DNA of 20,000 nucleotides, taken from an uncultured virus (IMG/VR IMGVR_UViG_3300007961_000161). Lineage: Duplodnaviria > Heunggongvirae > Uroviricota > Caudoviricetes. This document shows, one piece after another, positions 3,925 through 19,791 of this stretch (position 1 is the stretch's first letter; the number at the start of each line of letters is the position of its first letter). The notes under the pieces were generated by a model. That model searched no databases, was not told the origin of the DNA, and saw only the letters and a list, made by a program, of their open reading frames with translations. The stretch is from IMG/VR virus record IMGVR_UViG_3300007961_000161; one strand, given 5' to 3'. The translations under genes and the position numbers were made by a program.

Positions 3925-4326
3925 TTACGCAAAGCCATAATGCCTCGCCAATATGGACAGGCAAGCAAGGAAGATTCCTTTTGCTTCGCTCCGTTCATAT
4001 CCATCGGACGATGCCCATTCAGCGATGTTCATGCCCATGCCCAGCACTTTCCATGCCGCCTTTCCACACGGACTGCCCATGCCGCCGAGCCTGTCAATGG
4101 CGCGGAAAACGGACTGCCCGCGCATGATTGCCTGTTCTGTAGGTGAGGATACGGAATTGCTGCCGCCGTTGACTTTTTCATAATCTATGCTGCCGGCGCC
4201 GCCGCATTTCGCATCTGCGAACTGCTGCTGGAACTTGCGTCCGCCTTCATATTCCGCGGCATCAATATCACCGCGCTTCCTCATCATTGCCAAGACATCA
4301 ACGTCACGCTTCTGTTTCTTCTTCAT
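3925..4326 (-). CDS. Putative late-gene transcription regulator (DUF6456-like, 133 aa)
   Basis: ATG 4326 overlaps the SNF2 stop (ATGA) and has SD GGAG. Pattern VDVLAMM...G.I....YEGGRKF...A.DRLGG...VLGMGMNIAEWA...AKGIFLACLSILARHYG. Q-like position before cos/terS. Confidence 0.65.
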   Translation of the reverse strand: MKKKQKRDVDVLAMMRKRGDIDAAEYEGGRKFQQQFADAKCGGAGSIDYEKVNGGSNSVSSPTEQAIMRGQSVFRAIDRLGGMGSPCGKAAWKVLGMGMNIAEWASSDGYERSEAKGIFLACLSILARHYGFA

Positions 4327-5660
4327 CGTATCTCCGCCTTCACAGCGGCTATCAGCGCCGCCTGAGTCATGTCCTTGTTCTTCAGCGCCGCCATGACTTT
4401 TTCGTCGATCGTGCCCTTGGCGATGATGTGCTGGATTACGACCGTGCTTTTCTGTCCTTGCCGCCATAGCCTCGCGTTCGTCTGTTGGTACAATTCCAGC
4501 GACCATGTCACGCCGAACCAGACGAGGGTCGAGCCTCCCTGCTGGAGGTTGAGCCCATGTCCAGCCGATGCAGGATGGATACAGGCGACGGGGATGCGGC
4601 CGGCGTTCCAGTCGGAGATATCTGTTGATGTCTTTATCTCACGAACATCGAAGCGCTGCCTGATTCTCTCGATGTCATGTCTGAACCAGTAAGCGACCAG
4701 CAGTGGCTTGCTGTTCATGGATTCGATGATATCCTCCAGCGCGTCCAGCTTGCGATCATGAATCGCGATCACGGCATGCCCGTCATCATAGACCGCACCG
4801 TTTGCCATCTGACCCAGCTTGTTCGTCAGGACGCCGGCGCTCGCGGCCGTCACGTCCCCGTCGGGAAGGGAAAGGACGAGGTCGTTCTTCATCTTCGAAT
4901 ACGCCGCCTTCTCGTCATGCGACAGGAACACGGGGTATTCGGACATGACAAGCTCCGGCATCTTGAGATGGTCAGCCGCATTCATGGAAATGGTGATGTC
5001 AGATATCGCCCGGTAGATCGCGTCTTCCGCCCCCGGCAAAGGCCGCCATGAATAGGTGACGTGCCCGTTGCCTCCAGCCGAGGCGAAGTAGATGTCGCGG
5101 TACTGGTGGATGAACCTTCCTAGCCGCTGCCCCATGTCCAGCAGCTTGAACTCCGCCCACAGGTCCATCAGCCCGTTGCTGCTGGGGGTGCCGGTCAGCC
5201 CGACGATGCGCTTCACGCGGGGGCGCATCGACATCAGCGCCTTGAACCTCTTTGCCGTATGGCTCTTGAATGATGAAAGCTCGTCCACCACGACCATGTC
5301 GAAATCGAACGGCGCGTTTTCCACCAACCACGGTACGTTTTCTCGGTTGATGATGGTGATGTCTGCATGGGCTTCGACGGCCGCCTTTCTCTCGGCGGGG
5401 CTGCCAACGGCGACGGCGAACGTCAGGTGGGAGAGGTGGTCCCACTTGCCGATTTCGGCGGGCCAGGTGTCCCTCGCCACGCGGAGGGGGGCGATGACCA
5501 GGACGCGGGAGACCTCGAAGCTGTCGAACAACAGGCTGGCGACGGCGGTCAGCGTGATCACCGTTTTCCCAAGTCCCATTTCGAGTATGACCGCCGCCAC
5601 GGGATGCTCCTCGACATAGCCGATGGCGTATTTCTGATATTCATGCGGTGAGAATTTCAT
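4323..5660 (-). CDS. Phage SNF2-related DEAD/H helicase
   Basis: Walker A EMGLGKT, DELSSFK, LTGTP, PASAGHGLNLQ and QTNARLWRQGQ motifs. Confidence 0.95.
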   Translation of the reverse strand: MKFSPHEYQKYAIGYVEEHPVAAVILEMGLGKTVITLTAVASLLFDSFEVSRVLVIAPLRVARDTWPAEIGKWDHLSHLTFAVAVGSPAERKAAVEAHADITIINRENVPWLVENAPFDFDMVVVDELSSFKSHTAKRFKALMSMRPRVKRIVGLTGTPSSNGLMDLWAEFKLLDMGQRLGRFIHQYRDIYFASAGGNGHVTYSWRPLPGAEDAIYRAISDITISMNAADHLKMPELVMSEYPVFLSHDEKAAYSKMKNDLVLSLPDGDVTAASAGVLTNKLGQMANGAVYDDGHAVIAIHDRKLDALEDIIESMNSKPLLVAYWFRHDIERIRQRFDVREIKTSTDISDWNAGRIPVACIHPASAGHGLNLQQGGSTLVWFGVTWSLELYQQTNARLWRQGQKSTVVIQHIIAKGTIDEKVMAALKNKDMTQAALIAAVKAEIR

Positions 5661-5907
5661 CTATCTGCTCCTTGCCATCGATGACCAAAACATTGAATCC
5701 AAGCTGCCGAAGCTCCCCGTGCATCTTCATCTGCAGGGGACGGGGTTTTCTTCCCGGCGCTTTCAATTCGGCGAAGAACATCCTGCCTCCCGGAAGCAGC
5801 ACGATGCGGTCGGGCACTCCGGACGTTCCCGGCGACACGAATTTCAGCGCCATCCCGCCATGCTTTTTCACTGCGGTGCGGAGATGCCTTTCGATGTCTT
5901 TTTCCAT
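5641..5907 (-). CDS. VRR-NUC domain nuclease (PD-(D/E)XK)
   Basis: EKDIE...KFVSPGTSGVPDRIVLLPGGRMFFAELKAPG...LQ; canonical position between VirE and SNF2. Confidence 0.93.
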   Translation of the reverse strand: MEKDIERHLRTAVKKHGGMALKFVSPGTSGVPDRIVLLPGGRMFFAELKAPGRKPRPLQMKMHGELRQLGFNVLVIDGKEQIDEILTA

Positions 5908-5920
5908 TTTTGGCTCCCTT

Positions 5921-6200
5921 AATCACAGCAACACACAAAACACACGTTTTCCTATTAAATTCCTACGCGCGTATTTCGCGTATGCGCTATGCGCCAATTC
6001 CTTCTTTTTTCTCTCATTTAAATTATAAGGGAAAAGTTTGTGTTTTGTGATTGTATGCTGTTATGCGTTGAGTTCATTGAATATAATCCGTTCACAAACC
6101 GAGAGATGGATTGTTGCTTTCCTCCCCCGGTTTGTGTCTTGAAATCAGAATGGGATATCCGGGCAGTCACAATCGGAGCCACTGCTGCAATCACAATCTG
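5921..6200. repeat. Iteron-like CACAA/TTGTG repeats and inverted repeats flanking AT-rich DNA (candidate replication origin)
   Basis: 11-bp inverted repeat at 5934-5944/6039-6049, 9-bp inverted repeat at 6093-6101/6128-6136, TCACAATC direct repeat at 6167 and 6191, and palindrome TACGCGCGTA at 5964-5973. Confidence 0.6.
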
Positions 6201-8568
6201 GGATCCTGACGTATAGCCGCTGCCTTCCGTAGATGGGGAGCTTGCGGATGATTTTCCTTGACCGCTCCCAGCCATCTATCTGTGCCATTATCGCCCCGAT
6301 GGCATGGCTGTCAGAAGTCCGTAGTTCCGACAGGTTGTTGCCGAAGCACTCGCACCAGATTTCAGGGTTGCAAACGAAGACCCGCCTGACCTTGCCCCTG
6401 GGCTGCACAGGAGAGTCCAAGTCGTCCAGGAATGCCCGGCGGGCAGCAATATCCATGTCGTCCCAGTTATCTGGCAGGAGCCGTTCAAGATATTCTTCCA
6501 CCATGCCCACGCGGTCGTCCTGTTCCATTGCTTCCCGCTGGGCGTCCTCGGCAGCTTCGGCAGCTTCCCCTTCTAGGTAGAGGGGCTCACCGGACTTCCA
6601 TATCTCCTTGGCTTCCGCCCAGAACTGCGCCCGGTACGCATCATCGAAATCCCAGTCCTTCACGCGCTCCGTCTTGCGGAGCTTCAGCACCCAGAAGCGG
6701 CGGTTCCCTGTGATGTCACGGAGGTATCCGTGCTCTCCGTTGACGGTGGCGATCATGACGCAACTCCTCGGATGGCTCTCGACCACGCGCCCATAGCTGG
6801 GGCGGTACTTGTCATCCTGAGTGGTGATGAAAGCCTTGACCCGCTCGATGTCCGCCTTCTTCATGCCGGCGAGCTCTCCGATTTCCACGACCCAGAATCC
6901 CTGCAGCTTTTCAGCGCCGGTCTTGTCCTCCATATCGGTGAGGGTCAGACTTTCCGAGTAGTATTCTGGGGTGACGAGGTCTCGGACGATGGTGCTCTTG
7001 CCGATTCCCTGAGCGCCGTCGAGGACGATGATGCTGTCCATCTTACATCCCGGCTCATAGACCCGCTTTACTGCCGCGGCGAATGACTTCCTTGTCGCCT
7101 GCCGGACATATTCGGTGTCGTCAGCGCCAAGGTGGCGAATGAACAAATCCTCGACACGTTTTTCCCCGTCCCACGGGGGAAGCCCGTTAAGGTAGTCCCT
7201 GATGGGGTGGAACCGCCTGTTTTCGACTACGTTGGACAGGCAGATTTCGTAGTTCCGCTGGGAAAAAACTCCATAGTTGGCGTCGATGAAAGCTGTAAGC
7301 TGGCATGTGTCGGCATCACGCCAGAAGGAATTTCCATCCGGGCGCGGCCACGGGACTGGACCTGTCACCTGGATGCGCCCGGCAAGCTCATTGAAGGCGA
7401 AATTCCGCAGCCGTGAATCATTGACTAGGATGAGGGTGAGGTTCTGGATGCAGTTCATCAGCATCTGCGACCTCGGTTCCCGCTTCAGCATATCTTGCCA
7501 GCTATCGTCACCTTCCGGGGCGGGAGCGAAGTCTGCTATGGCTTCAGCCCTGCGTTCCTCAAGAAGCGTCCGATTCACATTGCCATCATCCAGCGCAAGC
7601 TGCGCCATCGCCTTGAAAGACGGCATGTTCTGCGGAGCGGATCCGTCAAGGGTGTCGGCGTCGAGGTCGCGGAACTTATGTAATCGGACGAGGTCAAATG
7701 CATTCAGCAATCTCTCGCAGCATGGGTCGGAACCGTGGTGGGAGTAGGCGAACTTGCCGTCATAGATGACCAGCCCGGCGGATCCCTCGCCCTTGGAATA
7801 CGTCCATCGGTCATCGGATTCGGTCGGCTCATAGACATCGGGGATAAACTCACGGATGGCGTCCTGCACCGTGTACGTCCGGCAGAACGCTCCGATTATG
7901 CCGCGTTTCTGCAGCGGATCTTCTGCCTTCGCCGCCCCGTGCCGATCCATGATGGTCTTTCTGGACGAAAGCGGCCATGTGGAGGCGTCGCGCCAGTCAT
8001 CATACTTGGCGAGGTATTTGTCCGGGTCGAGCATCGGTCCGTCAGTCCTGCCGCAGAGGAATTCGCCGTCCTTGGAAGATGTCGGCCAATGCATAAGGCG
8101 GTGCGGCTCGTAGGTCGTGTCATCGAACAGATCGATGCCGATTTCCCTGGCGACCATGTGCCCCAGGGCGGGATATTCCTCCTTCGTGACCTCCCGCGCC
8201 AGCGGCATGACGAGCCGGTAGCGGGGATGCTCCGGCGTATGTTTATGGGTCGTATGCCAGAAGCAAAGGAACGGCAGCTTTTTAATGACAGCGTTCAGCG
8301 TTTCCGGCTCTGCGTAATCCATGTCCAGTGTGAGCATGGAGCGACAGAGGACACTTTCCCTGTGCCGCTGTCCCTTGGCGAGGTGACCGCCGACGAAGCC
8401 TCCCTTGTCCTTTATCTCCGACTGCTCGGCGCGTGACATTTTGAGATATTCCCCTATGGTCTCGTTCGTGCGGGTCGTCTGCGACAGCATCATGCCAAGA
8501 TCGTCGAGGCTGATGTAGCCGTTCTTCCAGACCTTCGAACGCATGGTGTTCGCGGTCGCGTATTTCAT
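6145..8568 (-). CDS. VirE/VapE-family primase-helicase (N-terminal primase-like domain plus SF3 P-loop ATPase), 807 aa
   Basis: ATG 8568 with SD GGAGG. N-terminal GGFVGG...LTLDMD...HTTHKH...PRYRLVMPL; Walker A GAQGIGKS; WVVEIGEL; YLRDITGNRRFW. Confidence 0.93.
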   Translation of the reverse strand: MKYATANTMRSKVWKNGYISLDDLGMMLSQTTRTNETIGEYLKMSRAEQSEIKDKGGFVGGHLAKGQRHRESVLCRSMLTLDMDYAEPETLNAVIKKLPFLCFWHTTHKHTPEHPRYRLVMPLAREVTKEEYPALGHMVAREIGIDLFDDTTYEPHRLMHWPTSSKDGEFLCGRTDGPMLDPDKYLAKYDDWRDASTWPLSSRKTIMDRHGAAKAEDPLQKRGIIGAFCRTYTVQDAIREFIPDVYEPTESDDRWTYSKGEGSAGLVIYDGKFAYSHHGSDPCCERLLNAFDLVRLHKFRDLDADTLDGSAPQNMPSFKAMAQLALDDGNVNRTLLEERRAEAIADFAPAPEGDDSWQDMLKREPRSQMLMNCIQNLTLILVNDSRLRNFAFNELAGRIQVTGPVPWPRPDGNSFWRDADTCQLTAFIDANYGVFSQRNYEICLSNVVENRRFHPIRDYLNGLPPWDGEKRVEDLFIRHLGADDTEYVRQATRKSFAAAVKRVYEPGCKMDSIIVLDGAQGIGKSTIVRDLVTPEYYSESLTLTDMEDKTGAEKLQGFWVVEIGELAGMKKADIERVKAFITTQDDKYRPSYGRVVESHPRSCVMIATVNGEHGYLRDITGNRRFWVLKLRKTERVKDWDFDDAYRAQFWAEAKEIWKSGEPLYLEGEAAEAAEDAQREAMEQDDRVGMVEEYLERLLPDNWDDMDIAARRAFLDDLDSPVQPRGKVRRVFVCNPEIWCECFGNNLSELRTSDSHAIGAIMAQIDGWERSRKIIRKLPIYGRQRLYVRIPDCDCSSGSDCDCPDIPF

Positions 8569-8664
8569 GAAGCCTCCGTGCGGACAGGCGTCCGCTGAAT
8601 TTTGTTGGAGGCATGATCGCCTCCACGTACTACCGGGCATTCGGAGTCAGAGATGGCAAAAAAG

Positions 8665-9155
8665 TTTGTCGGCTTGCGCCGCAGCACATAAATTCGGCAG
8701 ATATTCCAGCCGTACATGACAAACGCGAGTTCTGCGTCACGGGTGAAAATCTCACCCCTTGCAGAAAAATGCGCCTCAGATATGCGGAGTTTCCCGATCA
8801 TTTCCTATCCGTAACCTTGCGTAATGGCGAACTATAATTTTTCGGCTTTATCGACGTGCGACACAGACATCTGCCCATATGCGAGATGAGCGCCCCGAAT
8901 GAGACATCTCCGTAGTTCTGCGACACGGCTGGAAATCTCGCTTCTGGCTGGAAATATCGCCGCAGATGTGCGAATCCGCGGTCATTCGCCTTCCGTAACT
9001 TTGCGTTATGACGCACAGTTTTTCAGGCGGCATTTCAAGAAGTACGGCGCAGACTTCTGCGGAGAAGTCAGATGTGCGTCCCGCATGGGAGATTTTCGAG
9101 TTCTGCGGCATGGGTGGAAATCTCGCCTCTCCTGGAATTCCCATGCCACAGATGT
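8665..9155. repeat. Degenerate tandem repeat, about 3 copies of a 184-186-bp unit
   Basis: Core AGTTCTGCG.CA.GG.TG.AAATCTC at 8728, 8914 and 9099. Copies 1 and 2 match at 45/59 ungapped from the core. TCCGTAACYTTGCGTWATG occurs at 8808 and 8992. Confidence 0.85.
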
Positions 9156-9170
9156 TTTCAGCCATCGGCA

Positions 9171-11081
9171 TCAGTCCTTGCGGTAGAATTCGGTTTCATA
9201 GCCGTCGGCGCGGAGGAGCAGCCCGTCAGCCCACGGCGGCGTTTCAGCCATGATGCGGCAGACTTCTTCAAGTGAATCGGACATGCCGGCTTCGATGACG
9301 AGTTCATCATGGATGTGCATCACGATTCGCCTGTCACGGAGCCGCATCATGGCTTCAGCCAACAGGTCGCGGGAAACCGCCTGCACGATGTTCTCCACGA
9401 ACTTCGGTCCGTAGGATTCGATTCGCTCCCATTTCTTGGTCATGCCGACACCTTCGTATGTCACGGCTTCGCCGCCGAATCTGTTCTCTCCCATGCGCGG
9501 CTTGGGGTACGAGAGTTTCCTTCCCGACGGCAGCGTGATGAACAGCATCCCGGAACGGCACTCGAAGCCAATTCCCTTGACGGTCGATGACGCCTTCCTT
9601 TTGACGGCGAGCTTCACGGATTCGTCCACGTCCCACCAGAACTGGACGATGGCAGGGTTGGCGTCCCGCCATGACGAAACCAGCCCCGGCAGTTCATCCT
9701 CGTCGAGCCCCATCTCAATAGCCCCCATCGCTTTCAAGGCGCCTACGGATCCGCCATAGCCAAGCGCCAATTCCGCTATCTTCCCTTTCTGCCGGAGATG
9801 CCCGTTCACGCCGTGTTTCTCGACGGGAACCCCGAACATCTGCGATGCGGAAGCGCAGTAGATGTCAGCACCTCCTGCGAAGGCGTCCATGCGCCATCCC
9901 TCCCCGGCGAGCCATGCAAGCACCCTTGCTTCAATGGCGGAAAAATCCGCCACGATGAGCTTTTTCCCGGGCGGGGCGATGAAGGTCGTGCGGACAAGCT
10001 GGGAGAGGACATCCGGCACATCGCCGTAGAGAAAATCCGTCATCTCATAGTCTCCCGACCGCACAAGCTCACGGGCTTCAGCGAGATCTCTCATGTCGTT
10101 CCTGCGCAGATTCTGCATCTGGATGAGCTTGCCCGACCACCGCCCAGTGCGGGCAGCGCCGTAGAACCGGAACATCCCCCGTGCCCGCCCGTCGGCGCAA
10201 ACGGCGTTCTGCATTGCTGCGTATTTCTTCACGGATGACTTCGCCAGCTGCAGCCGCAGGCGTAGTGGCTCCCGCAATTCTTCCGGGGCGGATTTCAGCA
10301 GTTCCGCGACCGCTTTCTTGCCCAGCGTTTCGGCTTCGATTCCGTTTTCCGCAAGCCACTGTTTCATCTGCGCCACGCTGTTCGGATTTTCCAGAGCGGT
10401 CAGATCTTTCATTTCTGATGTCAGCCTTGATCTGGATATGCCGTCAAAAGCAAGCGCATGGTTCACGAGTTCCATGTCCAGCAGGACACCGCGATCGTTT
10501 ATTTCCTGGTCGATGCGGTACTGCTCCCATACCTCATCAGGCACGGGGAATTTGGCAAGTTTCTCCTTTATCTGCATCTCCGCTTCAACATCTCGGCGGT
10601 TGTATTCCACGAAATCCTTCCATTTCGGATCGCAGAGGTACGTCATCGCCTTGCCGGGGACGCAGTACCGTTTGATGAGATTCTTGCCTTCGGTCAGCTT
10701 TTTCTTCGACAGTCCCAGGACCACTCCCGCTCCCTCAAGGGACTGCGGCAGACCAAGGGTTGCCGCCCATACCATCGAGCATCGCCATTGGGCAGGATCG
10801 AGAAATGTTCCTGACGGCATGCCGAGCATATGGGAGAGGCAGATCCTCTCGAATGATGCGTTGAATGCCCATTTCCCTATCGACGGGTCGGCAAGGGCAG
10901 CGATGATGCCGTCAGGGATCGTTTCACCGTGCTCAAGGTCGACGACCTCAACGGATCCCTCGTCAATGGAATAGCCGAAAAGTAGCACCTTGAAGCCGGG
11001 AGCCTCCGCATATCGGTATACCCCAGCTTTCGACAGGTCCGCAGAAGAGAATGTTTCAATATCTATGCTGATTGAATTCAT
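9171..11081 (-). CDS. polA: Phage family A DNA polymerase with 3'-5' exonuclease domain (636 aa)
   Basis: ATG 11081 with SD GAGG. Exo motifs DIETFS, AFNASFE and YNRRDV; polymerase motif A ADFSAIEAR, motif B RQKGKIAELALGYG, motif C HIHDE. Confidence 0.96.
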   Translation of the reverse strand: MNSISIDIETFSSADLSKAGVYRYAEAPGFKVLLFGYSIDEGSVEVVDLEHGETIPDGIIAALADPSIGKWAFNASFERICLSHMLGMPSGTFLDPAQWRCSMVWAATLGLPQSLEGAGVVLGLSKKKLTEGKNLIKRYCVPGKAMTYLCDPKWKDFVEYNRRDVEAEMQIKEKLAKFPVPDEVWEQYRIDQEINDRGVLLDMELVNHALAFDGISRSRLTSEMKDLTALENPNSVAQMKQWLAENGIEAETLGKKAVAELLKSAPEELREPLRLRLQLAKSSVKKYAAMQNAVCADGRARGMFRFYGAARTGRWSGKLIQMQNLRRNDMRDLAEARELVRSGDYEMTDFLYGDVPDVLSQLVRTTFIAPPGKKLIVADFSAIEARVLAWLAGEGWRMDAFAGGADIYCASASQMFGVPVEKHGVNGHLRQKGKIAELALGYGGSVGALKAMGAIEMGLDEDELPGLVSSWRDANPAIVQFWWDVDESVKLAVKRKASSTVKGIGFECRSGMLFITLPSGRKLSYPKPRMGENRFGGEAVTYEGVGMTKKWERIESYGPKFVENIVQAVSRDLLAEAMMRLRDRRIVMHIHDELVIEAGMSDSLEEVCRIMAETPPWADGLLLRADGYETEFYRKD

Positions 11082-11092
11082 GATCGCCTCAT

Positions 11093-11115
11093 AAAAAAGG
11101 GGGCTTGACGCCCCC
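11093..11115 (-). terminator. Intrinsic terminator between SSB gene and polA
   Basis: Minus strand GGGGGC-GTCAA-GCCCCC-TTTTTT. Confidence 0.7.
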
Positions 11116-11130
11116 GTATGTGGCCGTGGG

Positions 11131-11691
11131 TCAGCTGAGGAAGTCGTCATCTTCCTCGGAAGCGAAATCCATCGCCGCGCTGGTGCGCCCGCCGAGCGGT
11201 TCGCCATCGCGGAGCTTCTGGAGATGGTTAAGACCGCAGGCGATGCCCTTGTTTCCGTTGCGGTTGAAGGCGAAGAAGCTGATGCTGGCGCGTCCATAGA
11301 CGCCGCTGTACATCTCGCTGCGGTCGAGAATGGGGTTGCAGGCGGCGTCAACGACATCGGGCTTCGCCGTGGCGTTGGCGTTGATGAACCAGCAGCCGGA
11401 GTATGCCTCGTCATCGGGGCGCTCGGCATCGCCATCGCGGAGCGGGGTCTTGATGGAGGACAGGGGCGGCATCGCGCGCCCGTTGCCCTTGAGCTTTGAT
11501 TCGCCGTCGCGGTATGCCGCTTCGATGGCGCGGTGGATTTTTTCCACGGTCTTGCCGTCGGACTTTGGAATGATGAGGGAAACGCTGTACTTGGCGTCTC
11601 CGCCGTTGATGGACTTGGGTTCCCAGCAGTTAAGGTAGCTGAAGCGGACGGTGCCGGTGATGACTTTGCGGGGATCGACGTAGTTTGCCAT
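11131..11691 (-). CDS. DUF2815 family phage single-stranded DNA-binding protein (T7 gp2.5-like)
   Basis: VRFSY...KYSVSLIIPK...PLRDGDAERPDD...YSGVYGRASI...NGNKGIACGLNHLQKLRDGEPLGG and an acidic tail DFASEEDDDFLS. Confidence 0.93.
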   Translation of the reverse strand: MANYVDPRKVITGTVRFSYLNCWEPKSINGGDAKYSVSLIIPKSDGKTVEKIHRAIEAAYRDGESKLKGNGRAMPPLSSIKTPLRDGDAERPDDEAYSGCWFINANATAKPDVVDAACNPILDRSEMYSGVYGRASISFFAFNRNGNKGIACGLNHLQKLRDGEPLGGRTSAAMDFASEEDDDFLS

Positions 11692-11692
11692 T

Positions 11693-12817
11693 TTACACCT
11701 CTTGGCTGAAGTCTGATTGTGCGTTGCTGAAAGCCGGACGCTTATCCGTGTCCGGGACCAATGTCGGTTTGCCCTGGGGCTTCACAAGAAGCCCGCCGAG
11801 CAGTTCATCGAACTTTTTCCTTCCGAGCATCTTTTGCATGTCGGTGATGCCCAGGATGGATTTTTCATAGGGGTCGAAGCCCGCTCCGATGACAGCGTCG
11901 GCGACCGCCTTTTCATCGGAGTATCGCCTGTTGGAACGTCCCTCGACCAGCTTGAAACCTGACCATGCGTGACCTTCAAGGGCGCGTTTCAGGGCATAAG
12001 CCTTGACGTCGCCGGCCCAGGATTCGAGATTGTCCAGCATGGGGAGGATGGCTTCGATTTCGTGATCCTCCAGTTCCGCCGGAGGTGCGAAGTCATACCT
12101 CGCCAGCTTCAAGTTTTCTTCAGCGCGGGCGCGGCACAGCGTTTTCGCCTTGCAGAAGCGGCACCAGTCGCCGGGCTTGAACCCGCCTTCGCCCTTGTAT
12201 GCGGCTTCCGCCGCGGGGCGGAGTTCAAGGTCGCCCCAGAGCAGGAGATCGGCGGTCGACATCTCGCATGAGCGGAATCCGCCGCGCCTCGGCTGAAAAA
12301 TGACCATCCTGACTCTGTCGAAGTCGTACAGCCAGTCTAGGGCGTCCATCGCGCCGAGCGCATAAATCCTAAGCTGGGGATTGCCTTCCGCCTCGACGGG
12401 GACTCCCGAGCCGTACTTGAAGTCGGCGACCGTGAGCAGCCCGTCCGCGCCGATGACGGCGTCGGCGGTTCCGAATCCTTCCGGCAGCCAACGAGACAGG
12501 TTGAGCCTCACTTCGGGGTAGCAGAACGCTCCCGGCGACGCCGCCTTCGCTTCGGCAAGGAACTCCATCGCCATCAGCGCCCACGAATCAGTCGCCTCCT
12601 CCATTTCGGCGTCGAGGAACTGCATCCCTCCGCGGGGATCGGGCATCGCCATGCCCATCGCCTTACGGACCTTGAACTCGGCGAGCGCATGAGCCTCGGT
12701 TCCCTGAGCGGCGCACTCGCCGGCTTCATCGGGCAGCCCACAGGAGAGTTCCACGGACCGCGGGCAGTTCATCCATCGGTAGGCGCCCGATGGCGAGAGC
12801 TTCGCATGATCAGCCAT
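11693..12817 (-). CDS. DUF2800 family Cas4-like PD-(D/E)XK nuclease
   Basis: HAKLSPS...WMNCP, GTEAHALAE, GFGTAD, DFKYG, NPQLRIYALGA and CRFCKAKTLC (1+3 cysteine arrangement). Confidence 0.92.
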   Translation of the reverse strand: MADHAKLSPSGAYRWMNCPRSVELSCGLPDEAGECAAQGTEAHALAEFKVRKAMGMAMPDPRGGMQFLDAEMEEATDSWALMAMEFLAEAKAASPGAFCYPEVRLNLSRWLPEGFGTADAVIGADGLLTVADFKYGSGVPVEAEGNPQLRIYALGAMDALDWLYDFDRVRMVIFQPRRGGFRSCEMSTADLLLWGDLELRPAAEAAYKGEGGFKPGDWCRFCKAKTLCRARAEENLKLARYDFAPPAELEDHEIEAILPMLDNLESWAGDVKAYALKRALEGHAWSGFKLVEGRSNRRYSDEKAVADAVIGAGFDPYEKSILGITDMQKMLGRKKFDELLGGLLVKPQGKPTLVPDTDKRPAFSNAQSDFSQEV

Positions 12818-13136
12818 TGAGTGCCTCCGCTTCCTTCATGACCGCAGCTAAATGCTCCTGGGGCAATTCCGAAAGTTTGTTCACGCCGTAGCGGGTGAGG
12901 ATGTCCTTGACTGCCTCACGGAATCCCTGGCGAGTTTTGTTGACGAGCAGTCCGCGGACATCTTCAAAGGACGGCTGTTTTTCTTCGGACGGAGTTTCGG
13001 TGAACGGAACATCTACCGGTTCTTCATCCTCGATCGCACCATGGCACCAGCCACGTTCTGCAAGGTCGATGACATCGGCGAGTGTCTGGAGAGCGTTCCT
13101 TGCATTATGGATCAGATTGATTTCATCGCTTGTCAT
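12810..13136 (-). CDS. Conserved hypothetical phage protein (108 aa)
   Basis: C-terminal FEDVRGLL..K...G....VKDIL..YG..KLSEL pattern, typical of the gene preceding DUF2800 in this phage type. Overlaps both neighbours. Confidence 0.8.
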   Translation of the reverse strand: MTSDEINLIHNARNALQTLADVIDLAERGWCHGAIEDEEPVDVPFTETPSEEKQPSFEDVRGLLVNKTRQGFREAVKDILTRYGVNKLSELPQEHLAAVMKEAEALNG

Positions 13137-13312
13137 ATGGTTTTCCTTTTGTGCCGCATTTCATGCGGTTTCCGATTATGGTTTACTTTAGCTTTCATGC
13201 CTTCCTCGTATGCTTCGGCCATCCTCAGCAATTTCATGGCCAACCTGGATGCAACGAAGGATGTCTGGATCAGCACGTCAGCAAGCAGTTCGCTTCTGCT
13301 TTGGTTCGTCAT
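13133..13312 (-). CDS. Small hypothetical protein (59 aa, MTNQSRSELLADVLIQTSFVASRLAMKLL...), not in the ORF track
   Basis: Hand-translated. Strong SD AAGGAGGTG upstream of ATG 13312, and its stop overlaps the next ATG (ATGA at 13133-13136). Confidence 0.75.
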   Translation of the reverse strand: MTNQSRSELLADVLIQTSFVASRLAMKLLRMAEAYEEGMKAKVNHNRKPHEMRHKRKTI

Positions 13313-13378
13313 GCCTGTTCACCTCCTTCGGAAAGGCGTTTTTTTCCCTTCCTAAAAGCGAATGGAGGTGAGACAGGC
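13313..13378 (-). promoter_or_regulatory. Long hairpin sequestering the SD of the 59-aa ORF
   Basis: Minus strand GCCTGT(C)TCACCTCC(A)TTCG...CGAAGGAGGTGAACAGGC-ATG. Confidence 0.65.
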
Positions 13379-13401
13379 AATTGAACGAAAAAAATTAGAA
13401 A

Positions 13402-14034
13402 TTATTCAAGACGCCGCCGGATATGCTCGAATGCTTTGTGCTTACGAAAATTAACAGTGGATTGCTTCGTGCCAAGTTCCGTGGCTATTTGATGCTCTGA
13501 TTTTCCGCATAGCAGTCCTTCAATGATGGTGCGCTCTGCATCAGGCAGATCGGGAATGCATTTTCTGAGTTTGAGGCACAAATCAGCCAAAATCACGGCG
13601 TCCTCAACCAGCGTCACATCATGGATTTGGGAATTGAGAAGCCGTTTTGCATGGTGAGATGATGACTTATTCTGTTTATCGCCCGTATAGTGATGGCATC
13701 TGGCGCAATCCATGTCATGGCACATTCCATTCTTGAGAGGGCAGTAGCTCGACCAGAAGGTTCGATCGTGCTTTCCCTGGATGGAATCGCCATCAGTGCT
13801 GCTATCGGCTTGAACATCGATGGAGATGTTCCCGTTCTCCCTGTGGAAGCGGCATGTCATGCAGTCACAGATACATGTCCTGCGCTTGCTGGCGGGAACT
13901 ACGCATTCACCATGCTCTTGCATGCGTCTGCGGTAGGTGTCGGTGAAGCGGCATACTTTGCGGAAAACATCCTCGGTGACATTGATTTTTTCCCCGGAAG
14001 GAGACCTCAGCCAAAATTTGTCTTGCTCGGACAT
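13402..14034 (-). CDS. Sigma70 region 4-like transcriptional activator with two Cys-rich clusters (210 aa)
   Basis: ATG 14034 with SD AAAGGAAG. C-terminal LPDAERTIIEGLLCGKSEHQIATELGTKQSTVNFRKHKAFEHIR HTH; clusters C...CICDCMTC and CPLKNGMCHDMDCARC. Confidence 0.82.
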   Translation of the reverse strand: MSEQDKFWLRSPSGEKINVTEDVFRKVCRFTDTYRRRMQEHGECVVPASKRRTCICDCMTCRFHRENGNISIDVQADSSTDGDSIQGKHDRTFWSSYCPLKNGMCHDMDCARCHHYTGDKQNKSSSHHAKRLLNSQIHDVTLVEDAVILADLCLKLRKCIPDLPDAERTIIEGLLCGKSEHQIATELGTKQSTVNFRKHKAFEHIRRRLE

Positions 14035-14225
14035 TCGCTGTCTTCCTTTGCTGAACGGAAGACGCGGAATGCGGACGCCATCGGACACGACGGGACGGCA
14101 GCAGACCGGCTTGAGCCGTTCAGCTTCCGCCCCGCCTCCCAATGGCGGGGTTTCATATGGGTTGGTGCCATCAAGGCCTTGGGAATGAACGCTGATCAGG
14201 CGCTCGGCAATTGATGGCGATAAAG

Positions 14226-14301
14226 ATCACGCACGTGATATGTTTGCATTCGCAAACAAAACATTGACCGATGCAGTGAATTCATCTAGACTTTTTGCAT
14301 C
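14226..14301 (+). promoter_or_regulatory. Sigma70-type promoter for the defence operon with adjacent operator-like palindromes
   Basis: TTGACC (14264-14269), 17-bp spacer, TAGACT (14287-14292). Palindromes ATCACG-ca-CGTGAT (14226-14239), TGTTTGC-attc-GCAAACA (14241-14258) and TGAATTCA (14277-14284). Confidence 0.6.
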
Positions 14302-14370
14302 TATTCTGAATCCGACCACGCAATTCAGTCATAACTAAGCGGTTGTGTCATGTCGTTCCACGGAGGTTCC

Positions 14371-15393
14371 ATGACAGTTCCACGAGAGCTTGGAATTTTT
14401 AGTTCTATTCCGCTGATTCAATTGGATTTTGGCACCTTCGCGAAGGCGTTGAAACTATCATTTGCCGAGGATGTTGCTGATACGGCTCTCATCGAGCTTA
14501 TCTATAGCTGTGTTTTGGATCCCAAAAAGAATAAAATTTCTGTCAGAAAAGACACCGCATCATATATAATGAATCATCAAAAAGGCGGTAATCCACGGCA
14601 GGATGTAACGAAATCCGGTGGCAAGATGTCCGTGAAAACTCTTGTTTCTAATTTTCAAGCTCGCATCATTCCCAATATTAACGATATAAATATTATTGGC
14701 CTTATTAACTTTTTCTCTGCACTTATAAAAAATGACAACAAGTTGGAACCTCATAGGGAAAAACTGCTTGGTCTTGCTAGCGAGGAAAAGCTGCCCGAAT
14801 TTCTGGCGATGGTGTTCAAGCATTCGCTGAATGTCCAAAATATTTATGAAAACCAAACCGCTAGTAAATTTAAAAGTAAAAAGATAATAAATCAGGGAAG
14901 CCTTCTAGAACTTGCGAAAACAAGGCTTCCAGACCCGGATGTCCCAGAAGAGCCAACAGAAATCGAACAGGCCTACGTATCGGCGCTAATGGCGGTATGG
15001 GCTCAAAAGCACGGCAGAAATTATTTCAATAAAAACATGCTCAAGGATTATCCACAAGATGATGAATTTCATGAGGAGCAACGACGGTATTTCTATGCCG
15101 CAGAGGAAGTCCGTCATGCCGTGAGAGAAATAGATGATGGTACTGATTTTCAGGAACTTAAAGATGAGATATACGAAGGGATAAAGGAGAATTGGCAAGA
15201 TGCTTATCCAAGCGGGGAAAAACGCCTGAGAGAAGTTTTGAAGGAGGTAACCAAAGTAATCCTACATGGTTGCCGCTTAGAAAGGGAAACGGAGCTTGTC
15301 AAAAACCCTGTAAGGAAAGGGGTATGCCATTTTCTTGTGAATGATGGAAAAATTTCTGGGTGGGTGAGGAAAGACGATGGACAGTCTGTTTAA
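14371..15393 (+). CDS. ABC-three-component/Lamassu first protein (LmuA-like): uncharacterised N-terminal domain plus ABC-3C C-terminal domain
   Basis: SD GGAGG at 14362-14366 before ATG 14371 (start uncertain). C-terminal E..YVSAL...QRRYFYAAE...F.ELKDEIYEGI...RL..VL...RKGVCHFLVNDGKI.W pattern matches ABC-3C CTDs. Confidence 0.78.
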   Translation: MTVPRELGIFSSIPLIQLDFGTFAKALKLSFAEDVADTALIELIYSCVLDPKKNKISVRKDTASYIMNHQKGGNPRQDVTKSGGKMSVKTLVSNFQARIIPNINDINIIGLINFFSALIKNDNKLEPHREKLLGLASEEKLPEFLAMVFKHSLNVQNIYENQTASKFKSKKIINQGSLLELAKTRLPDPDVPEEPTEIEQAYVSALMAVWAQKHGRNYFNKNMLKDYPQDDEFHEEQRRYFYAAEEVRHAVREIDDGTDFQELKDEIYEGIKENWQDAYPSGEKRLREVLKEVTKVILHGCRLERETELVKNPVRKGVCHFLVNDGKISGWVRKDDGQSV

Positions 15394-15820
15394 TACGGCG
15401 TTTGAAAACTCACTTAGAATCGCCTTGCTTCTTGATGCCTTTGGCAGACCGCAGAATCTGGATATGATTTATGCTGCTGACTTTATGACTATTTTTGGTG
15501 GATATTTCGGGTTTGGTCATAATTGTCTCCAAGGGGAAAATCGAATGCTGTTTTCCATTTTCACTTCCCGGAGGAAAATCGTAAGGCAGGCAATTAATTC
15601 TCTTGTTGTTGAAGGAATCGTGATGCCTTCTATTGGGTCTGAAGGTTTGGTCTACGGATTAACTGAGACAGGCAGACAATTCTGTACCTCGTTGAGCAGC
15701 GAATATGCCAAAGAATATAAGACCACAGCGATAAAAGTGGCTTCCGCTGTGTCTGGTATGTCTTCAACATTGCTGATTCAAAAACTCAGTGCAGGGAAGT
15801 CACCATTTGTGGAGCAATGA
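15377..15820 (+). CDS. ABC-three-component middle component (MC2-like / LmuC-like)
   Basis: FNTAFENSLRIALLL...D....DF...RR..VRQAI..LV..GIV...G..Y.LT..G..F...L.S.YA pattern; 147 aa, located between the CTD gene and the ATPase. Confidence 0.8.
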   Translation: MDSLFNTAFENSLRIALLLDAFGRPQNLDMIYAADFMTIFGGYFGFGHNCLQGENRMLFSIFTSRRKIVRQAINSLVVEGIVMPSIGSEGLVYGLTETGRQFCTSLSSEYAKEYKTTAIKVASAVSGMSSTLLIQKLSAGKSPFVEQ

Positions 15821-15821
15821 A

Positions 15822-17630
15822 ATGGAACGATTCTATCTCAGCAGAATTATAGTAGGCGGACCTGAAGTCAAAGATTCTATCATTGACTTTGTTGATGGTG
15901 TCAACATTATTTATGGTCCATCAAATACTGGTAAATCCCTTATTCTTAAATGCATTGATTTTATGCTGAACGGCAAAATAGCTCCTTTTGATTCAGTAAC
16001 ATATGGTTACGATACAATCACCATGTTTCTGTCATCTGTGGACGGGAAAGAAATCATTCTTCAGCGAAATACGGATCAGCATTATCCGGTCAAAGTCATG
16101 TGCAATTTTGCCGAAATCGGCAGCACCACTTACAATATGGATAATTTTGATCTATTGCTTTTGAAGTTATTTAACATAGAATCCGGACATGAAATTATAA
16201 AAAATGATACGTTTGGTACTCAAAAGCTTACATTCCGTTCTGCGTACCACAATTTTTATCTTGATGAAGATAGCATTATTAGTAGTAAACCATCTTTACA
16301 AAGTGAACATAGTAAAACTTCCGATTTGACAGCGTTATATTTCCTGCTTACTGGAGATGATTTAAGCGAACTCCGTCCTAGCTTGACTGAACAAGAGCGG
16401 AAAAAACGCCTCTCTGAACAAGAAGGCGTTGCAAAATTTCTAAGGGAAAAATTGGCAAAGATTCAGGAACGGAAGGTTGAGCTTGAGGATTCTATCGGTA
16501 ATGCATCGGATCAAGATATTGAAGAAAAAATTGACGCTTTTTTGCAAGAAGCTACTGCGATAGATGATAAAATTGAACAAGCCAACAAAGAGCGAGAAGC
16601 TTTGATTGCAAGAGCTTATCCACTGAAGATGGACATGGAAGAGGCTCTTATGCTCAAAAAACGCTATGCTGATCTTGAATCCCAGTATATTTCCGACATC
16701 AAACGCCTAGAATTCATTCTTGATGGAAAAAACAAAAGCGCTGACATCTCACCACCACAGAACTGTCCTTTCTGTGGTGGAACTCTGTCAGAAGAAAAAA
16801 CAACTTCTGAAACCATTGCAGGTGCTGCTTTCGCAGAAATGAAAAGGATAAGTCACCAATTAAATGACCTACGAGACACAAGGAAAAGTTTAGACCGGCA
16901 TATTACAGAGCTATCAGCCAGTTATCATGACTTAGTGAAACAGCAACAAACTCTTTCAAATATTATTTCAAACTCTCTGATGCCGAAATCCATATCTTTG
17001 AAAACTATGCTTGCCGGATACACGCAGGCATTGGCTGATAGGCAGGAAATTGTCTCTTTACAACGTATGGCAAAAGAATTGAATGATGACGCGCAGAAAA
17101 ATGATAGCAAGACATTTCCAAAGCCTCCTAAATTTTCTGTCAAAGAGCAATTTGCCGACAAAGATTTTTGGAAGGCAATAAATGATAGTTTTTCATCGAT
17201 GGTTAAACAGTGCGGATATCCAGGTAATCCTGAGGCCAGTATTTCAACGGACACATGGGATGCTGTGGTGTCCGGGAAAAAAAAGGAAAATGAAGGCAAA
17301 GGATACCGTGCTTTCTTAAATACCATCATTATGTTCAATATTCTTACATTTCTATCAGAGCATGGTAAATATTCCCCACATCTTCTCTTGCTAGACTCTC
17401 CCATACTTTCTTTGAAGGAACGTCAAAAAAAGGATACCGTTGATATTCCGTTATCGATGAAGGAATCACTTTTTTCCTGCCTGATATCAAAATGTGGTTC
17501 TAATCAGATCATCATTGTTGATAACGAAATACCCGAAAACGTAAATTATGATAAAGTGAATCTAATTGAATTTACAAAAAACGATTCTGGGCGATACGGA
17601 TTTTTGTCAAAAAAAATTGACTCGGAATAA
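15822..17630 (+). CDS. SMC/Rad50-like ABC ATPase (LmuB-like), 602 aa
   Basis: ATG 15822 with SD GGAG. Walker A GVNIIYGPSNTGKS, long coiled coils, zinc-hook CPFCG, Walker B LLLLDSP and QIIIVDN. Confidence 0.88.
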   Translation: MERFYLSRIIVGGPEVKDSIIDFVDGVNIIYGPSNTGKSLILKCIDFMLNGKIAPFDSVTYGYDTITMFLSSVDGKEIILQRNTDQHYPVKVMCNFAEIGSTTYNMDNFDLLLLKLFNIESGHEIIKNDTFGTQKLTFRSAYHNFYLDEDSIISSKPSLQSEHSKTSDLTALYFLLTGDDLSELRPSLTEQERKKRLSEQEGVAKFLREKLAKIQERKVELEDSIGNASDQDIEEKIDAFLQEATAIDDKIEQANKEREALIARAYPLKMDMEEALMLKKRYADLESQYISDIKRLEFILDGKNKSADISPPQNCPFCGGTLSEEKTTSETIAGAAFAEMKRISHQLNDLRDTRKSLDRHITELSASYHDLVKQQQTLSNIISNSLMPKSISLKTMLAGYTQALADRQEIVSLQRMAKELNDDAQKNDSKTFPKPPKFSVKEQFADKDFWKAINDSFSSMVKQCGYPGNPEASISTDTWDAVVSGKKKENEGKGYRAFLNTIIMFNILTFLSEHGKYSPHLLLLDSPILSLKERQKKDTVDIPLSMKESLFSCLISKCGSNQIIIVDNEIPENVNYDKVNLIEFTKNDSGRYGFLSKKIDSE

Positions 17631-17643
17631 GCGAGGCTAAAAC

Positions 17644-17865
17644 GTGTCTAAAAAAGTTAGCTATAACAAGCTGTGGAAACTGCTCATCGACAAGAAAATG
17701 ACCCGCACGGATATGAAAAACAGGAGCAGGATAAGCACGGCGTCCCTTGCGAAGCTAGGCAAGGGAGAAAACATCACCACGGCTATACTCGTAAAAATAT
17801 GCGAGGCGCTTGACTGCGACATCACGGAAATCATGGAGCTTGTTGATGAGCTTGACGGGAAATGA
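17644..17865 (+). CDS. XRE/Cro-C1 helix-turn-helix regulator (HTH_26)
   Basis: GTG start with SD GAGG. VSYNKLWKLLIDKKM...ISTASLAKLGKGENITTAILVKICEALDCDITEIME is the hallmark pattern of this family. Confidence 0.92.
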   Translation: MSKKVSYNKLWKLLIDKKMTRTDMKNRSRISTASLAKLGKGENITTAILVKICEALDCDITEIMELVDELDGK

Positions 17866-18060
17866 AGCTGAACCTTCAAATTTTTCTTCAAACTATCAAA
17901 TTTTGACATATAGGGAGGGTAAGTTTTCCAGCTTATACCATTCCTATTGTCGTATGGAACGTCCCGCAGCTCCAATATTCCGAGAACACTCTAGTACGCA
18001 ACATTTTGAAATTACAAAGTATTTTTATAGAAAAATTTCTGCTTCTTGTATCAACAGCAC

Positions 18061-19791
18061 ATGGAAAATAGAGCCATAACAAAGGCATTCAAAAACTATC
18101 ATATGTTTGGCTTCACAGGGACGCCGATATTTGCCGAAAACGCAGGCGCAAATGGTGACCCGAACTTGAAAACCACGGAACAAGCCTTTGGGGATAAGCT
18201 TCACACATACACCATAGTCAACGCCATTAATGATGGGAATGTCCTGCCTTTCAGGATTGACTATGTGAATACGCTGAAAAAGAAAGATGAAATCATTGAT
18301 TACAAAGTCCAAGCCATAGATGTTGAAAAAGCCCTGAATGCCCCCCAAAGGATAGCGGAAATCGTTTCCTACATCATTGAGCATTTTGACCAAAAAACGA
18401 AGCGGAACACTTCTTACAGCCTAAAAGGGCAAAGGGTCTTGGGCTTCAATTCCATCTTTGCTGTTGCGTCCATCCCAATGGCAAAGAAGTATTACTATGA
18501 ATTGAAGAAACAACTGGCTGAAAAGCACAAAAACCTTACCATAGCTACGATATTCAGCTATTCGGCAAATGAAGATGACCCAGAGGACATAGCAAATAAC
18601 GAAAGCTTTGATACGGAACATTTGGATACCACTAGCAGAGAGTTCCTTGAAGAAGCCATCGGCGATTATAACAAGGCTTTCAATACCAATTTTGACACAT
18701 CATCAGACAAGTTTGAAAATTATTATAAAGACTTGTCATTGAAGATGAAGCAACGGCAAGTTGATTTGCTGGTGGTAGTCAATATGTTCCTTACTGGCTT
18801 TGACGCTACCACGCTGAATACCTTGTGGGTTGATAAAAACTTAAGGCATCATAGTTTGATTCAGGCATATTCACGGACGAATCGCATACTTAATTCCGTG
18901 AAGACTTTTGGGAATATTGTCTGCTTCCGTGACTTACAGAAAGAAACGGATGACGCCATAGCTTTGTTTGGAAACAAGGATTCTGGCGGTATCGTGCTGT
19001 TGCGTAGTTTTGATGACTACTACAACGGCTATGATGAAGAAAGGGATAACGGCAAGAAGCATAATGTCGGCTATGTTGATTTGATAAAGGAATTGACAAC
19101 GCAGTTCCCATTGGGACATCCCATCATAGGGGAACAGGCGCAGAAAGATTTCCGTGCGTTGTTTGGTTCTATCTTGCGGATGCGGAATATCCTGACATCC
19201 TTTGATGACTTCAAGGGACAGGAAATATTGTCAGAGGCGGACTTCCAAGACTACCAAAGTATCTACATTGATTTGAAGCCAACGCCAAAGCAAGGGCAGA
19301 AAGAAGATATCAATGATGACATTGTGTTTGAAGCGGAACTGATTCGCCAGATAGAGGTCAACATTGATTACATTTTGATGCTTGTTGAAAAGTATCAGCA
19401 GTCCAACTGTAAGGATAAGGAAATCCTTATCCGCATTTCCAAGGCAATCAATTCCAGCATTGAGTTGCGTAGTAAGAAGGAACTGATTGAAGGCTTTATT
19501 GAAAAGGTGAATGTGACTACATCCGTTGGTGCTGATTGGAAAGCCTATGTCACCAAACGCAGGGAAGAAGACCTATCCGCATTGATTGAAAATGAAAAGC
19601 TGAAACCAGAATTGGCAAGGCGCTTCATAGAAAAGTCATTCCAAGATGGCGAACTGAAAACACGGGGGACGGATATTCAGAGCATTCTACCGCCATCCTC
19701 GCCATTTGACAGGAACAGCAACAAGAAAAAGAAAGGCATCATTGAAAGAATCAAGGAGTTCTTTGAAAAGTATATTGGGCTGGCTGTATAA
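18061..19791 (+). pseudogene. hsdR: 5'-truncated type I restriction subunit R (EcoR124I-like HsdR C-terminal half)
   Basis: Begins just before helicase motif III (FGFTGTP) and retains VVNMFLTGFDA and LIQAYSRTNR plus the C-terminal domain. No nuclease domain, Walker A or DExH upstream, and no clear SD. Confidence 0.85.

Follow-up and report, generated by a model that had tools for sequence, protein, structure and literature searches.

The 20,000-nucleotide stretch of DNA analysed here (the window) comes from an uncultured Caudoviricetes virus, IMG/VR record IMGVR_UViG_3300007961_000161, and carries on its plus strand, at 14371-17630, what profile matches identify as a complete short Lamassu/ABC-3C operon, composed of lmuA, whose product ends in a CTD6 C-terminal domain (CTD), of lmuC, whose product is of type MC2, and of lmuB. 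A small gene for an XRE-type regulator follows on the same strand. Upstream, lmuA diverges from a sigma-like gene heading an operon for an exonuclease, a Gp2.5-like single-stranded DNA-binding protein (SSB), a family-A DNA polymerase (PolA), a primase and an SNF2 helicase. Our analysis makes it likely that this locus is Lamassu defence cargo, with an uncharacterised effector and an XRE autoregulator, lodged in an exchangeable slot of a temperate phage-like element.

The Lamassu operon, its XRE gene and the upstream palindrome

The open reading frame (ORF) of lmuA opens at an ATG at 14350, and its start was placed at the ATG at 14371 because a GGAGG (14362-14366) precedes this codon and because the database copy of the protein (P0001) has 340 residues; the gene so delimited spans 14371-15393. 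Its product matches Pfam CTD6 (8.5e-33), scoring 114 bits in the C-terminal half for a cut-off of 26.4, and the PADLOC LmuA profile PDLC03857 (3.1e-45), with residues 26-342 of the 347-residue ORF aligned on positions 2-326 of 327, N-terminal domain included. The middle component is encoded by lmuC (147 residues, 15377-15820; Pfam MC2, 3.1e-34; PADLOC LmuC PDLC03875, 1.1e-36), which lies between lmuA, with a 17-nt overlap, and lmuB (15789-17630). The latter encodes a short SMC/Rad50-like ABC ATPase matching Pfam AAA_23 and, over residues 12-607, PADLOC LmuB PDLC03867 (3.9e-146); its likely start is the ATG at 15822, giving a protein of 602 residues, and its translation displays a Walker A motif (GPSNTGKS), a Walker B motif (LLLLDS) and a CPFC hook. 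The preliminary description of this DNA, made from its letters, had recognised a Lamassu/ABC-3C module here and had seen in the divergent gene an ABC-3C CTD protein and not a CI/S24-peptidase repressor, both of which the PADLOC and Pfam matches bear out. A CI/LexA-type phage repressor was considered for LmuA and rejected, the C-terminal half being ABC-3C CTD6 and not an S24 peptidase/dimerisation domain.

By its sequence, the cassette is a member of the catalogued Lamassu family PDLC03857, within the CTD6/MC2 subfamily of ABC-3C. All 13 of the sister LmuAs compared with PADLOC match this profile, 11 of them over its entire length, and the window LmuA is a divergent member (3.1e-45 versus 1e-72 to 1e-103 in most sisters); among 23 homologues of similar length, one is 82% identical and the remainder at most 37-38%. 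The PADLOC profile bears no description, and the family is perhaps the 'Lamassu-Hypothetical' subtype of DefenseFinder. The organisation is that of the short (type II) Lamassu systems LmuACB/DdmABC of Vibrio cholerae and Salmonella enterica (PDB 9hr5, 9nxx, 9uxl), with the same gene order lmuA-lmuC-lmuB, an LmuB of ~600 residues that bears both Walker motifs (the B motif being hhhhD[S]) and a CxxC hook, and an LmuA made of a variable N-terminal domain, a linker and a CTD. Unlike in these systems, the N-terminal domain is here all-helical and without a match to Cap4 or to another known nuclease, and the cassette includes a fourth gene and a conserved upstream palindrome.

This fourth gene (17644-17865, plus strand) encodes a 73-residue XRE/Cro-C1 helix-turn-helix (HTH) protein (Pfam HTH_26, 2e-16, 60.4 bits for a cut-off of 22) and begins with a GTG, preceded by a GAGG, 13 nt beyond the lmuB stop. 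When 80 genome loci encoding LmuA relatives were fetched and compared with the window proteins, 45 of the 63 loci that could be judged had an XRE homologue on the same strand no more than 400 nt beyond lmuB, these homologues being 36-74% identical to the window protein for 24-48% among the Lmu proteins. The gene is probably co-transcribed with the lmu genes and would be the regulator of the cassette. Small HTH regulators are likewise found in other defence operons, such as the C-proteins of restriction-modification (RM) systems, CapH (CapH/CapP) and BrxR/CapW, and by analogy the pairing of the XRE with an upstream palindrome suggests that a toxic system is autoregulated here. Unlike CapH/CapP and BrxR/CapW, the cassette includes neither a CapP protease nor a WYL sensor, and xre is its last gene, not its first. 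In some relatives the XRE homologue lies against a methylase gene, overlapping its start in L056 (12740-14157) and L021 (13204-15452) or being fused to a C-5 methylase in L064 (13191-14405), an arrangement that resembles an RM controller protein.

Two palindromes stand within the 336-nt intergenic region, where the preliminary description had noted operator-like sequences. Palindrome 1 (ATCACG-CA-CGTGAT, 14226-14239; ATCACGCACGTGAT), read from the sequence, is not conserved, its core TCACGNNCGTGA having no match across the 160 fetched loci. Palindrome 2 (TGTTTGC-ATTC-GCAAACA, 14241-14258; TGTTTGCATTCGCAAACA) has no exact 18-nt match in the loci and, in the window alone, is at chance level (1 match versus 1.33 expected); its significance comes from recurrence in relatives and from nothing else. 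Its core, TTTGC-N4-GCAAA (14243-14256), stood out when inverted repeats were enumerated in 280 nt around the lmuA starts, occurring in 7 of 44 XRE-positive loci (43 loci and the window) versus 1 of 31 others. With up to one mismatch allowed in the 450 nt ahead of lmuA, and counting only loci that offer at least 150 nt there, it was present in 17 of 44 XRE-positive loci, in 1 of 18 XRE-negative loci and in 3 of 15 whose XRE status could not be assigned; the rest of the loci gave a background of 0.04 per 450 nt, and mononucleotide shuffles a mean of 0.43 of 44. After clustering at ≥70% LmuB identity, it was retained in 9/21 XRE-positive versus 1/12 XRE-negative clusters (binomial against background, 5e-8; one-sided Fisher test between the two sets, p 0.042). 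Since it also occurs in loci without a PolA-type phage, the palindrome belongs to the cassette, and from its co-occurrence with the XRE gene it is probably the operator of this regulator. The palindromes of the preliminary description are thus present between the divergent genes, and one of them recurs; that one tracks the XRE and not LmuA. Its proposal of a transcriptional output was to be given up if the N-terminal domain of LmuA matched a known effector, failed to bind the intergenic DNA and left control to a conventional repressor such as the XRE at 17644; the domain matches no known effector, and of the two proteins the XRE is the more plausible ligand of the intergenic DNA.

Similar sites (up to one mismatch) were also seen elsewhere, ~990-1000 nt upstream of lmuA in the XRE-less Bacillus-type loci L024, L025 and L026, and at +1307 from the lmuA start, near the lmuB start, in six loci of one LmuB subgroup (L047, L055, L060, L066, L070 and L076), where the site may be conserved coding sequence or an internal site. 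In the window, palindrome 2 ends 5 nt ahead of the -35 hexamer of a candidate sigma-70-type promoter for lmuA on the plus strand (TTGACC-17 nt-TAGACT, 14264-14292), which agrees with the consensus at 9 of 12 positions.

The N-terminal domain of LmuA

LmuA consists of an N-terminal domain (hereafter N-domain; residues 1-160, encoded at 14371-14850 on the plus strand), a disordered linker (161-175) and the CTD6 docking/oligomerisation domain, with a pLDDT of 86.2 for the full model. In the AlphaFold2 model of the N-domain alone (pLDDT 90.7, pTM 0.87), all secondary structure is helical, with nine helices, in keeping with the helical N-terminus of the preliminary description. Among homologues the domain can be aligned over its full length (alignments A1 and A2), N68 being invariant and S64, F95, D122, F144 and L145 at least 90% conserved.

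Neither families nor folds were recognised in this domain. No family, whether of nuclease, protease, TIR, Sir2 or HTH type, was found in LmuA residues 1-170 at E ≤5 in Pfam or E ≤1 in NCBIfam, and the same two libraries returned no family for this domain at the N-terminus of the L121 protein or on the other carriers described below. Foldseek against the PDB gave no fold match (best E 0.76), a VIA-align comparison with 48,161 chains gave no row at Z ≥5 (best Z 3.9, talin), and the ESM Atlas returned unnamed clusters with a top score of 0.79, below a meaningful level; such a lack of matches for a predicted model does not show the fold to be new. A PDB sequence search with the profile of A2 reached a segment of a Clp ATPase at E 0.004, a hit that we judged spurious, and with the full LmuA model the LmuA chains of the PDB ranked top in Foldseek but weakly (best E 0.23). 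Among the known LmuA effector classes (Cap4, Mrr, PDDEXK, HNH, Sir2, lipase, protease, FMO and SMEK), none was matched by sequence or fold, the SMEK model perhaps lying outside the libraries. These searches agree with the earlier statement that no nuclease, protease, TIR or Sir2 motif is recognisable, and the Foldseek check proposed with it matched nothing, so that no known effector was identified.

Other properties attributed to the N-terminus fared less well. The window copy is basic (pI 8.97, net charge +3), as had been described, and the family is not: among 30 relatives the pI exceeds 8 in 6 and is below 6 in 13, with a median of 6.2. The stretch called HTH-like corresponds to the S64/N68 motif and appears in the model as a 14-residue loop followed by a single helix (60-67); this helix is flanked by helices 37-45 and 77-85, with loops of 14 and 9 residues between them. 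HTH proteins do not stand out in the fold searches, and with no HTH family match the attribution is not supported. No hydrophobic segment of membrane-helix grade was found in the domain, and a predicted complex of four copies (median 0.38 versus a mark of 0.42, one control reaching 0.40) speaks neither for nor against self-association.

The N-domain is not restricted to LmuA. An exhaustive phmmer search with LmuA residues 1-196 retrieved 30 proteins, mostly LmuA-sized, together with a 942-residue NB-ARC+TPR protein (P0034, E 1.9e-6) and a 474-residue DUF2806/Abi_alpha protein (P0046). Among longer proteins, a profile search retrieved 67 hits, 62 of them with CTD6, and one of 640 residues with a weak, sub-cut-off nSTAND5 match. 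In the viral contig L121, a 946-residue NACHT-SNaCT14 protein (5826-8666) occupies the equivalent slot with an LmuA-type helical domain at its N-terminus, and hhalign pairs A2 with its first 169 residues over 139 columns (probability 96.4%, E 1.2e-9). The preliminary description had asked whether the domain recurs divergent from sigma4-like genes with other C-termini; it does so in the NACHT-SNaCT14 protein of L121, and it is found on NB-ARC+TPR and DUF2806/Abi_alpha proteins as well. Because it is found on LmuA, NACHT and NB-ARC scaffolds alike, we read the N-domain as a portable N-terminal module of conflict systems that would usually stand at the effector position. The NACHT/NB-ARC STAND anti-phage proteins thus share with LmuA this helical domain (L121, P0034) and a scaffold that undergoes induced oligomerisation; unlike in STAND NTPases, the domain is here delivered by an SMC-like ABC ATPase complex.

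Further similarities were noted with Hachiman. The PADLOC HamA profiles (436-490 positions) match the N-domain through their first 150-170 positions, the N-terminus of the L121 NACHT protein matching positions 1-168 of HamA PDLC00164 at 6.8e-16 and two LmuAs matching weakly; no HamA-type protein bearing the N-domain was retrieved. A fusion of the domain to CTD11, hinted at by PADLOC (8e-6) in the effector of the viral contig L084, was not confirmed by hhalign with A2 (probability 1.4%, E 0.035).

The slot and its surroundings

The position of the cassette is shared by many relatives. Of the 60 loci that extend 5 kb or more upstream of lmuA, 28 have the exonuclease/SSB/polymerase module (≥40% identity) divergent from lmuA, and we therefore consider the synteny old and widespread, spanning Bacillota, including Bacillus and Negativicutes, as well as Collinsella and Gordonibacter. 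When 18 of the other 32 loci were scanned against PHROGs, most had genes of phages or mobile elements ahead of the cassette, in the majority on the opposite strand. These include prophage types with Mu Gam and Sak4, with phrog_2513 on the opposite strand and ParA/ParB behind it on the cassette strand, with an SNF2 helicase, with a DnaC-like loader, with Ant and phrog_13787, and with a Rha-like regulator and an integrase.

To the sister viral contigs, 80 of which were fetched after aligning 16 exonucleases (A3), the Lamassu cassette is one occupant among several. A complete divergent CTD6 Lamassu lies in L085, L144 and L154, versions cut by the contig ends in L110 and L117, one on the same strand in L082, and fragments in L081 and L091. 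Pfam was searched with 94 ORFs from 24 viral contigs, and PADLOC with 33 selected ORFs. In nine of these contigs the layout differs, the exonuclease diverging from a D5-type primase; the other fifteen are laid out like the window, and other defence genes fill the slot in at least 11 of them. The occupants comprise an ABC-3C CTD11 effector with a DUF2326 ATPase (L084), a PDC-S06/AAA_13 ATPase behind two genes without family (L113, L130, L133), type I RM (L099, L114, L124, L134), the NACHT-SNaCT14 protein (L121), methylases with a restriction endonuclease (L149), a type II restriction endonuclease (L094), PDC-M30A-like genes with an XRE homologue (L097, L126), a WYL regulator with a Y-family polymerase (L136), and SNF2/NOV_C with a pair of HTH_3 and M78 peptidase genes (L087). 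Because unrelated defence systems fill it in sister elements, the slot is, as far as gene content tells, a cargo hotspot and not a repressor position. Of the claim that a Lamassu module had taken the place of the phage repressor, the divergence from a sigma-like-led early operon is retained and the regulatory meaning of the position is not. Furthermore, in 27 of 28 sister loci (L066 was dropped for an empty slice) the cassette lies 0.05 or more below the phage genes in G+C content.

Two of these occupants have features of their own. In L113 (4545-8615), L130 (3009-7291) and L133 (4295-8447), proteins of ~300-357 and ~210-220 residues precede the PDC-S06/AAA_13 ABC ATPase, a layout resembling that of effector, middle component and ABC ATPase. 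In L097 (6543-8444, 633 residues) and L126 (6369-8306, 645 residues), the cargo region encodes a protein with a CapP-like metallopeptidase match (PADLOC capP, 8.8e-13 and 7.2e-8).

Downstream of lmuB-xre, the genome loci also carry defence genes, namely type I RM (L026, L002), McrBC (L018, L021), type III RM (L021, L053), HmaA/HmaB-like genes (L027, L067, L069), type II RM (L045, L054, L056, L064) and a Schlafen-like protein (L051). A large serine recombinase follows the downstream defence genes in L054, and host polysaccharide genes stand directly at the end in L024 and L029. Interchangeable anti-phage cargo near the regulatory region of a temperate element is likewise known from the hotspots of P2/P4-type prophages and satellites and from lambda, with rexAB beside cI. 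Unlike these, the phage family considered here comes from Bacillota and Actinomycetota, has a module of PolA, Gp2.5-like SSB and PD-(D/E)XK exonuclease, and hosts a cassette with its own XRE and operator. The occurrence of Lamassu family members in prophage hotspots is stated in a preprint (Millman et al.).

In the window itself, the G+C content steps at ~14200 from ~0.58 on the left to ~0.40 on the right. On the left, all genes of the phage-type module recognised in Pfam and PHROG scans lie on the minus strand: a small terminase (3021-3506), the SNF2 helicase (4323-5660), a primase-helicase (6145-8640), PolA (ORF 9171-11435), the Gp2.5-like SSB (11131-11691), the PD-(D/E)XK exonuclease (11693-12817), a 108-residue protein (12810-13136) and, at the head of the early operon, the sigma-70 region-4 protein (13402-14034; Pfam Sigma70_r4_2, 1.6e-6; phrog_13787, 1.7e-17). 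The first ~115 codons of the PolA ORF, that is ~300 nt, overlap the SSB gene; since its PHROG matches begin at residue 119, the real start is probably near 11090. The ORF of the sigma-like gene is open to a TTG at 14142, its likely start being the ATG at 14034. This gene is a neighbour of the cassette and lies outside it; a scan of the upstream ORF of 16 sister genome loci gave a Sigma70_r4_2 match (E ≤1e-4) at the equivalent position in 9. Between the sigma-like start and the G+C break lies a G+C-rich hairpin (CCCCGCC-N7-GGCGGGG, 14130-14150), followed on the plus strand by TTT only, for which the scan made no terminator call.

On the right, a 5'-truncated hsdR (type I restriction subunit R, 18046-19791, plus strand; PADLOC REase_I, 1.4e-177, residues 8-577 on positions 389-970 of 976) is preceded by 180 non-coding nt, and neither hsdM nor hsdS is present in 17866-19791; we regard this fragment as left over from adjacent cargo or as part of the flank, outside the Lamassu. 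The junctions were examined by comparing the window with contigs of four metagenome runs (X2, X3, X4 and X16), the stretch having been recovered in gut and rumen runs of several studies. A contig of the independent run X3, from a different study, spans 13984-14696, and the junction between phage and lmuA is therefore real and not an artefact of assembly. In X2, 12000-18072 is covered by contigs that are identical to the window and then continue into unlike sequence, this breakpoint coinciding with the onset of hsdR homology at 18067, and no contig crosses 17923-19208 in runs X3 and X4. The junction with the hsdR fragment, unconfirmed in the independent runs, may mark the end of the element or the endpoint of a deletion, or may be a misjoin. 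In X16, a sheep-gut metatranscriptome, four read-length contigs fall on 14035-14319, 15507-15659 and 19348-19380, those on the intergenic region and on lmuC having depth 3 and 0-1 differences; they are strandless, may stem from DNA carry-over and were left unused as expression evidence. Close DNA relatives are few, with only 6 records among phages at 60-80% identity over at most 2% of the query, and none in a search of plasmids.

Proposed mechanism, alternatives and significance

Two preprints on short Lamassu systems (10.1101/2025.03.14.643221, 10.1101/2025.04.02.646746) describe how two LmuB and one LmuC sequester one LmuA by its CTD, how DNA-end binding frees LmuA, and how the CTD of the freed protein forms a cyclic oligomer that gathers the N-domains; CTD6-CTD12 and MC2-MC8 are there the more diverged subfamily. 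By analogy with these solved systems, we propose a self-contained cassette of four genes (operator and promoter, lmuA, lmuC, lmuB, xre) in which two LmuB and one LmuC would hold a single LmuA through its C-terminal domain until DNA ends or aberrant DNA are bound, whereupon LmuA would be released and its CTD would oligomerise. Oligomerisation would here bring together ~160-residue all-helical N-domains, not nucleases. Given that the N-domain also stands at the effector position of NACHT/NB-ARC STAND proteins, we take it for a possibly non-enzymatic effector that forced proximity would activate and that would halt the infected cell or the invader. The XRE would most likely bind TTTGC-N4-GCAAA just upstream of the putative lmuA promoter and autoregulate the operon. 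The fallback of the preliminary description, in which the N-domain is a new toxic effector, is accordingly the reading that we prefer.

Several observations weigh against this proposal. Only N68 is invariant in the N-domain, and no catalytic-looking constellation of residues was seen in A2; from the HamA profiles, some Hachiman effectors may also have the domain ahead of a nuclease, in keeping with an accessory and not a killing role. The palindrome is found in just 17 of the 44 XRE-positive loci, its dependence on XRE after clustering stands at p 0.042, and the XRE-negative loci come from few lineages. The promoter scan was overall no better than chance (14 sites versus 11.0 +/- 3.6 expected), and the methylase-associated homologues indicate that the XRE may serve the downstream system also or instead. 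In addition, 10.1101/2025.04.02.646746 mentions, among the short Lamassus, a clade that 'seemingly lost the effector domain' and that may or may not be the PDLC03857 family.

This lost effector, the scarcity of conserved polar residues and the HamA matches, which hint at a fusion ahead of a nuclease, could also be explained if the N-domain were itself non-toxic and recruited or regulated a host or phage protein or DNA, or if LmuBC acted on DNA free of any effector. We hold this to be unlikely, for the domain occupies the effector position of LmuA, NACHT and NB-ARC proteins in a cassette that has no second conserved effector gene, it is kept, and well folded in the model, over dozens of species, and no HamA-type protein carrying it was retrieved. 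Far less probable is the transcriptional output advanced in the preliminary description, in which the N-domain would be a DNA-binding repressor or activator held by LmuBC, such that DNA sensing would switch prophage transcription. The adjacent early promoter, the helical and, in this copy, mildly basic domain (pI 8.97) and the nearby palindromes had pointed that way. The absence of an HTH family or fold match, the reduction of the HTH-like stretch to a loop and one helix, and the charge of the relatives (6 of 30 basic, 13 acidic) speak against it, as do the presence of the domain on STAND/NACHT proteins, the unrelated defence systems that fill the slot in sister elements and the several unrelated phage backbones that carry the cassette; moreover, the palindrome follows the XRE (17/44 versus 1/18), though LmuA is in every locus. 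LmuA as a stand-in for the repressor is therefore disfavoured.

Regulation of the element could instead fall to the XRE. If lmuACB-xre were expressed in the lysogen, the XRE might be the repressor of the element and shut the divergent sigma-like early operon from a shared operator, much as lambda cI is co-transcribed with rexAB. The cassette does diverge from early or regulatory genes in the PolA-type loci (28/60) and in several other prophage types, the operator lies inside the shared intergenic region, and no further repressor was seen in the window. Immunity repressors, however, normally differ between phages, whereas this XRE keeps 36-74% identity on unrelated phage backbones and moves together with the Lamassu; where the slot of a sister element holds other cargo, the XRE is missing or lies elsewhere, its 73 residues are too few for a sensor or cleavage domain, the consensus scan found no minus-strand promoter near the operator, and the integrase end of the element lies outside the window. 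We judge such an immunity operon quite improbable. A bolder combination, equally doubtful in our eyes, would make the N-domain a non-enzymatic, oligomerisation-activated effector common to SMC-type and NLR-type sensors, which could assemble on the membrane, on DNA or on an essential host or phage factor, with lmuACB-xre doubling as the immunity operon of the lysogen; if true, one transcription unit would couple DNA-end sensing with control of the element.

Returning to Lamassu cargo with its own regulator, three of its elements were not found in the literature searched, survey supplements that may name the subtype excepted: the sharing of the N-domain with NACHT/NB-ARC proteins, a conserved fourth XRE gene with a conserved upstream palindrome in Lamassu, and the repeated occurrence of the cassette next to early genes in several prophage families. 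Lamassu is among the commonest bacterial defence families, and to our knowledge the mechanistic work on it has so far all been done on nuclease effectors. The subtype described here is spread over dozens of species, in gut and rumen Bacillota, Collinsella and others, and the action of its N-domain, once understood, could reveal a new way to stop an infected cell. The circuit of XRE and palindrome, together with the recurrence near early-gene control regions, portrays a toxic defence operon that would move between hotspots with its own regulation. For annotation, the gene at the 'repressor position' of this PolA-type phage family should by default be considered as cargo.

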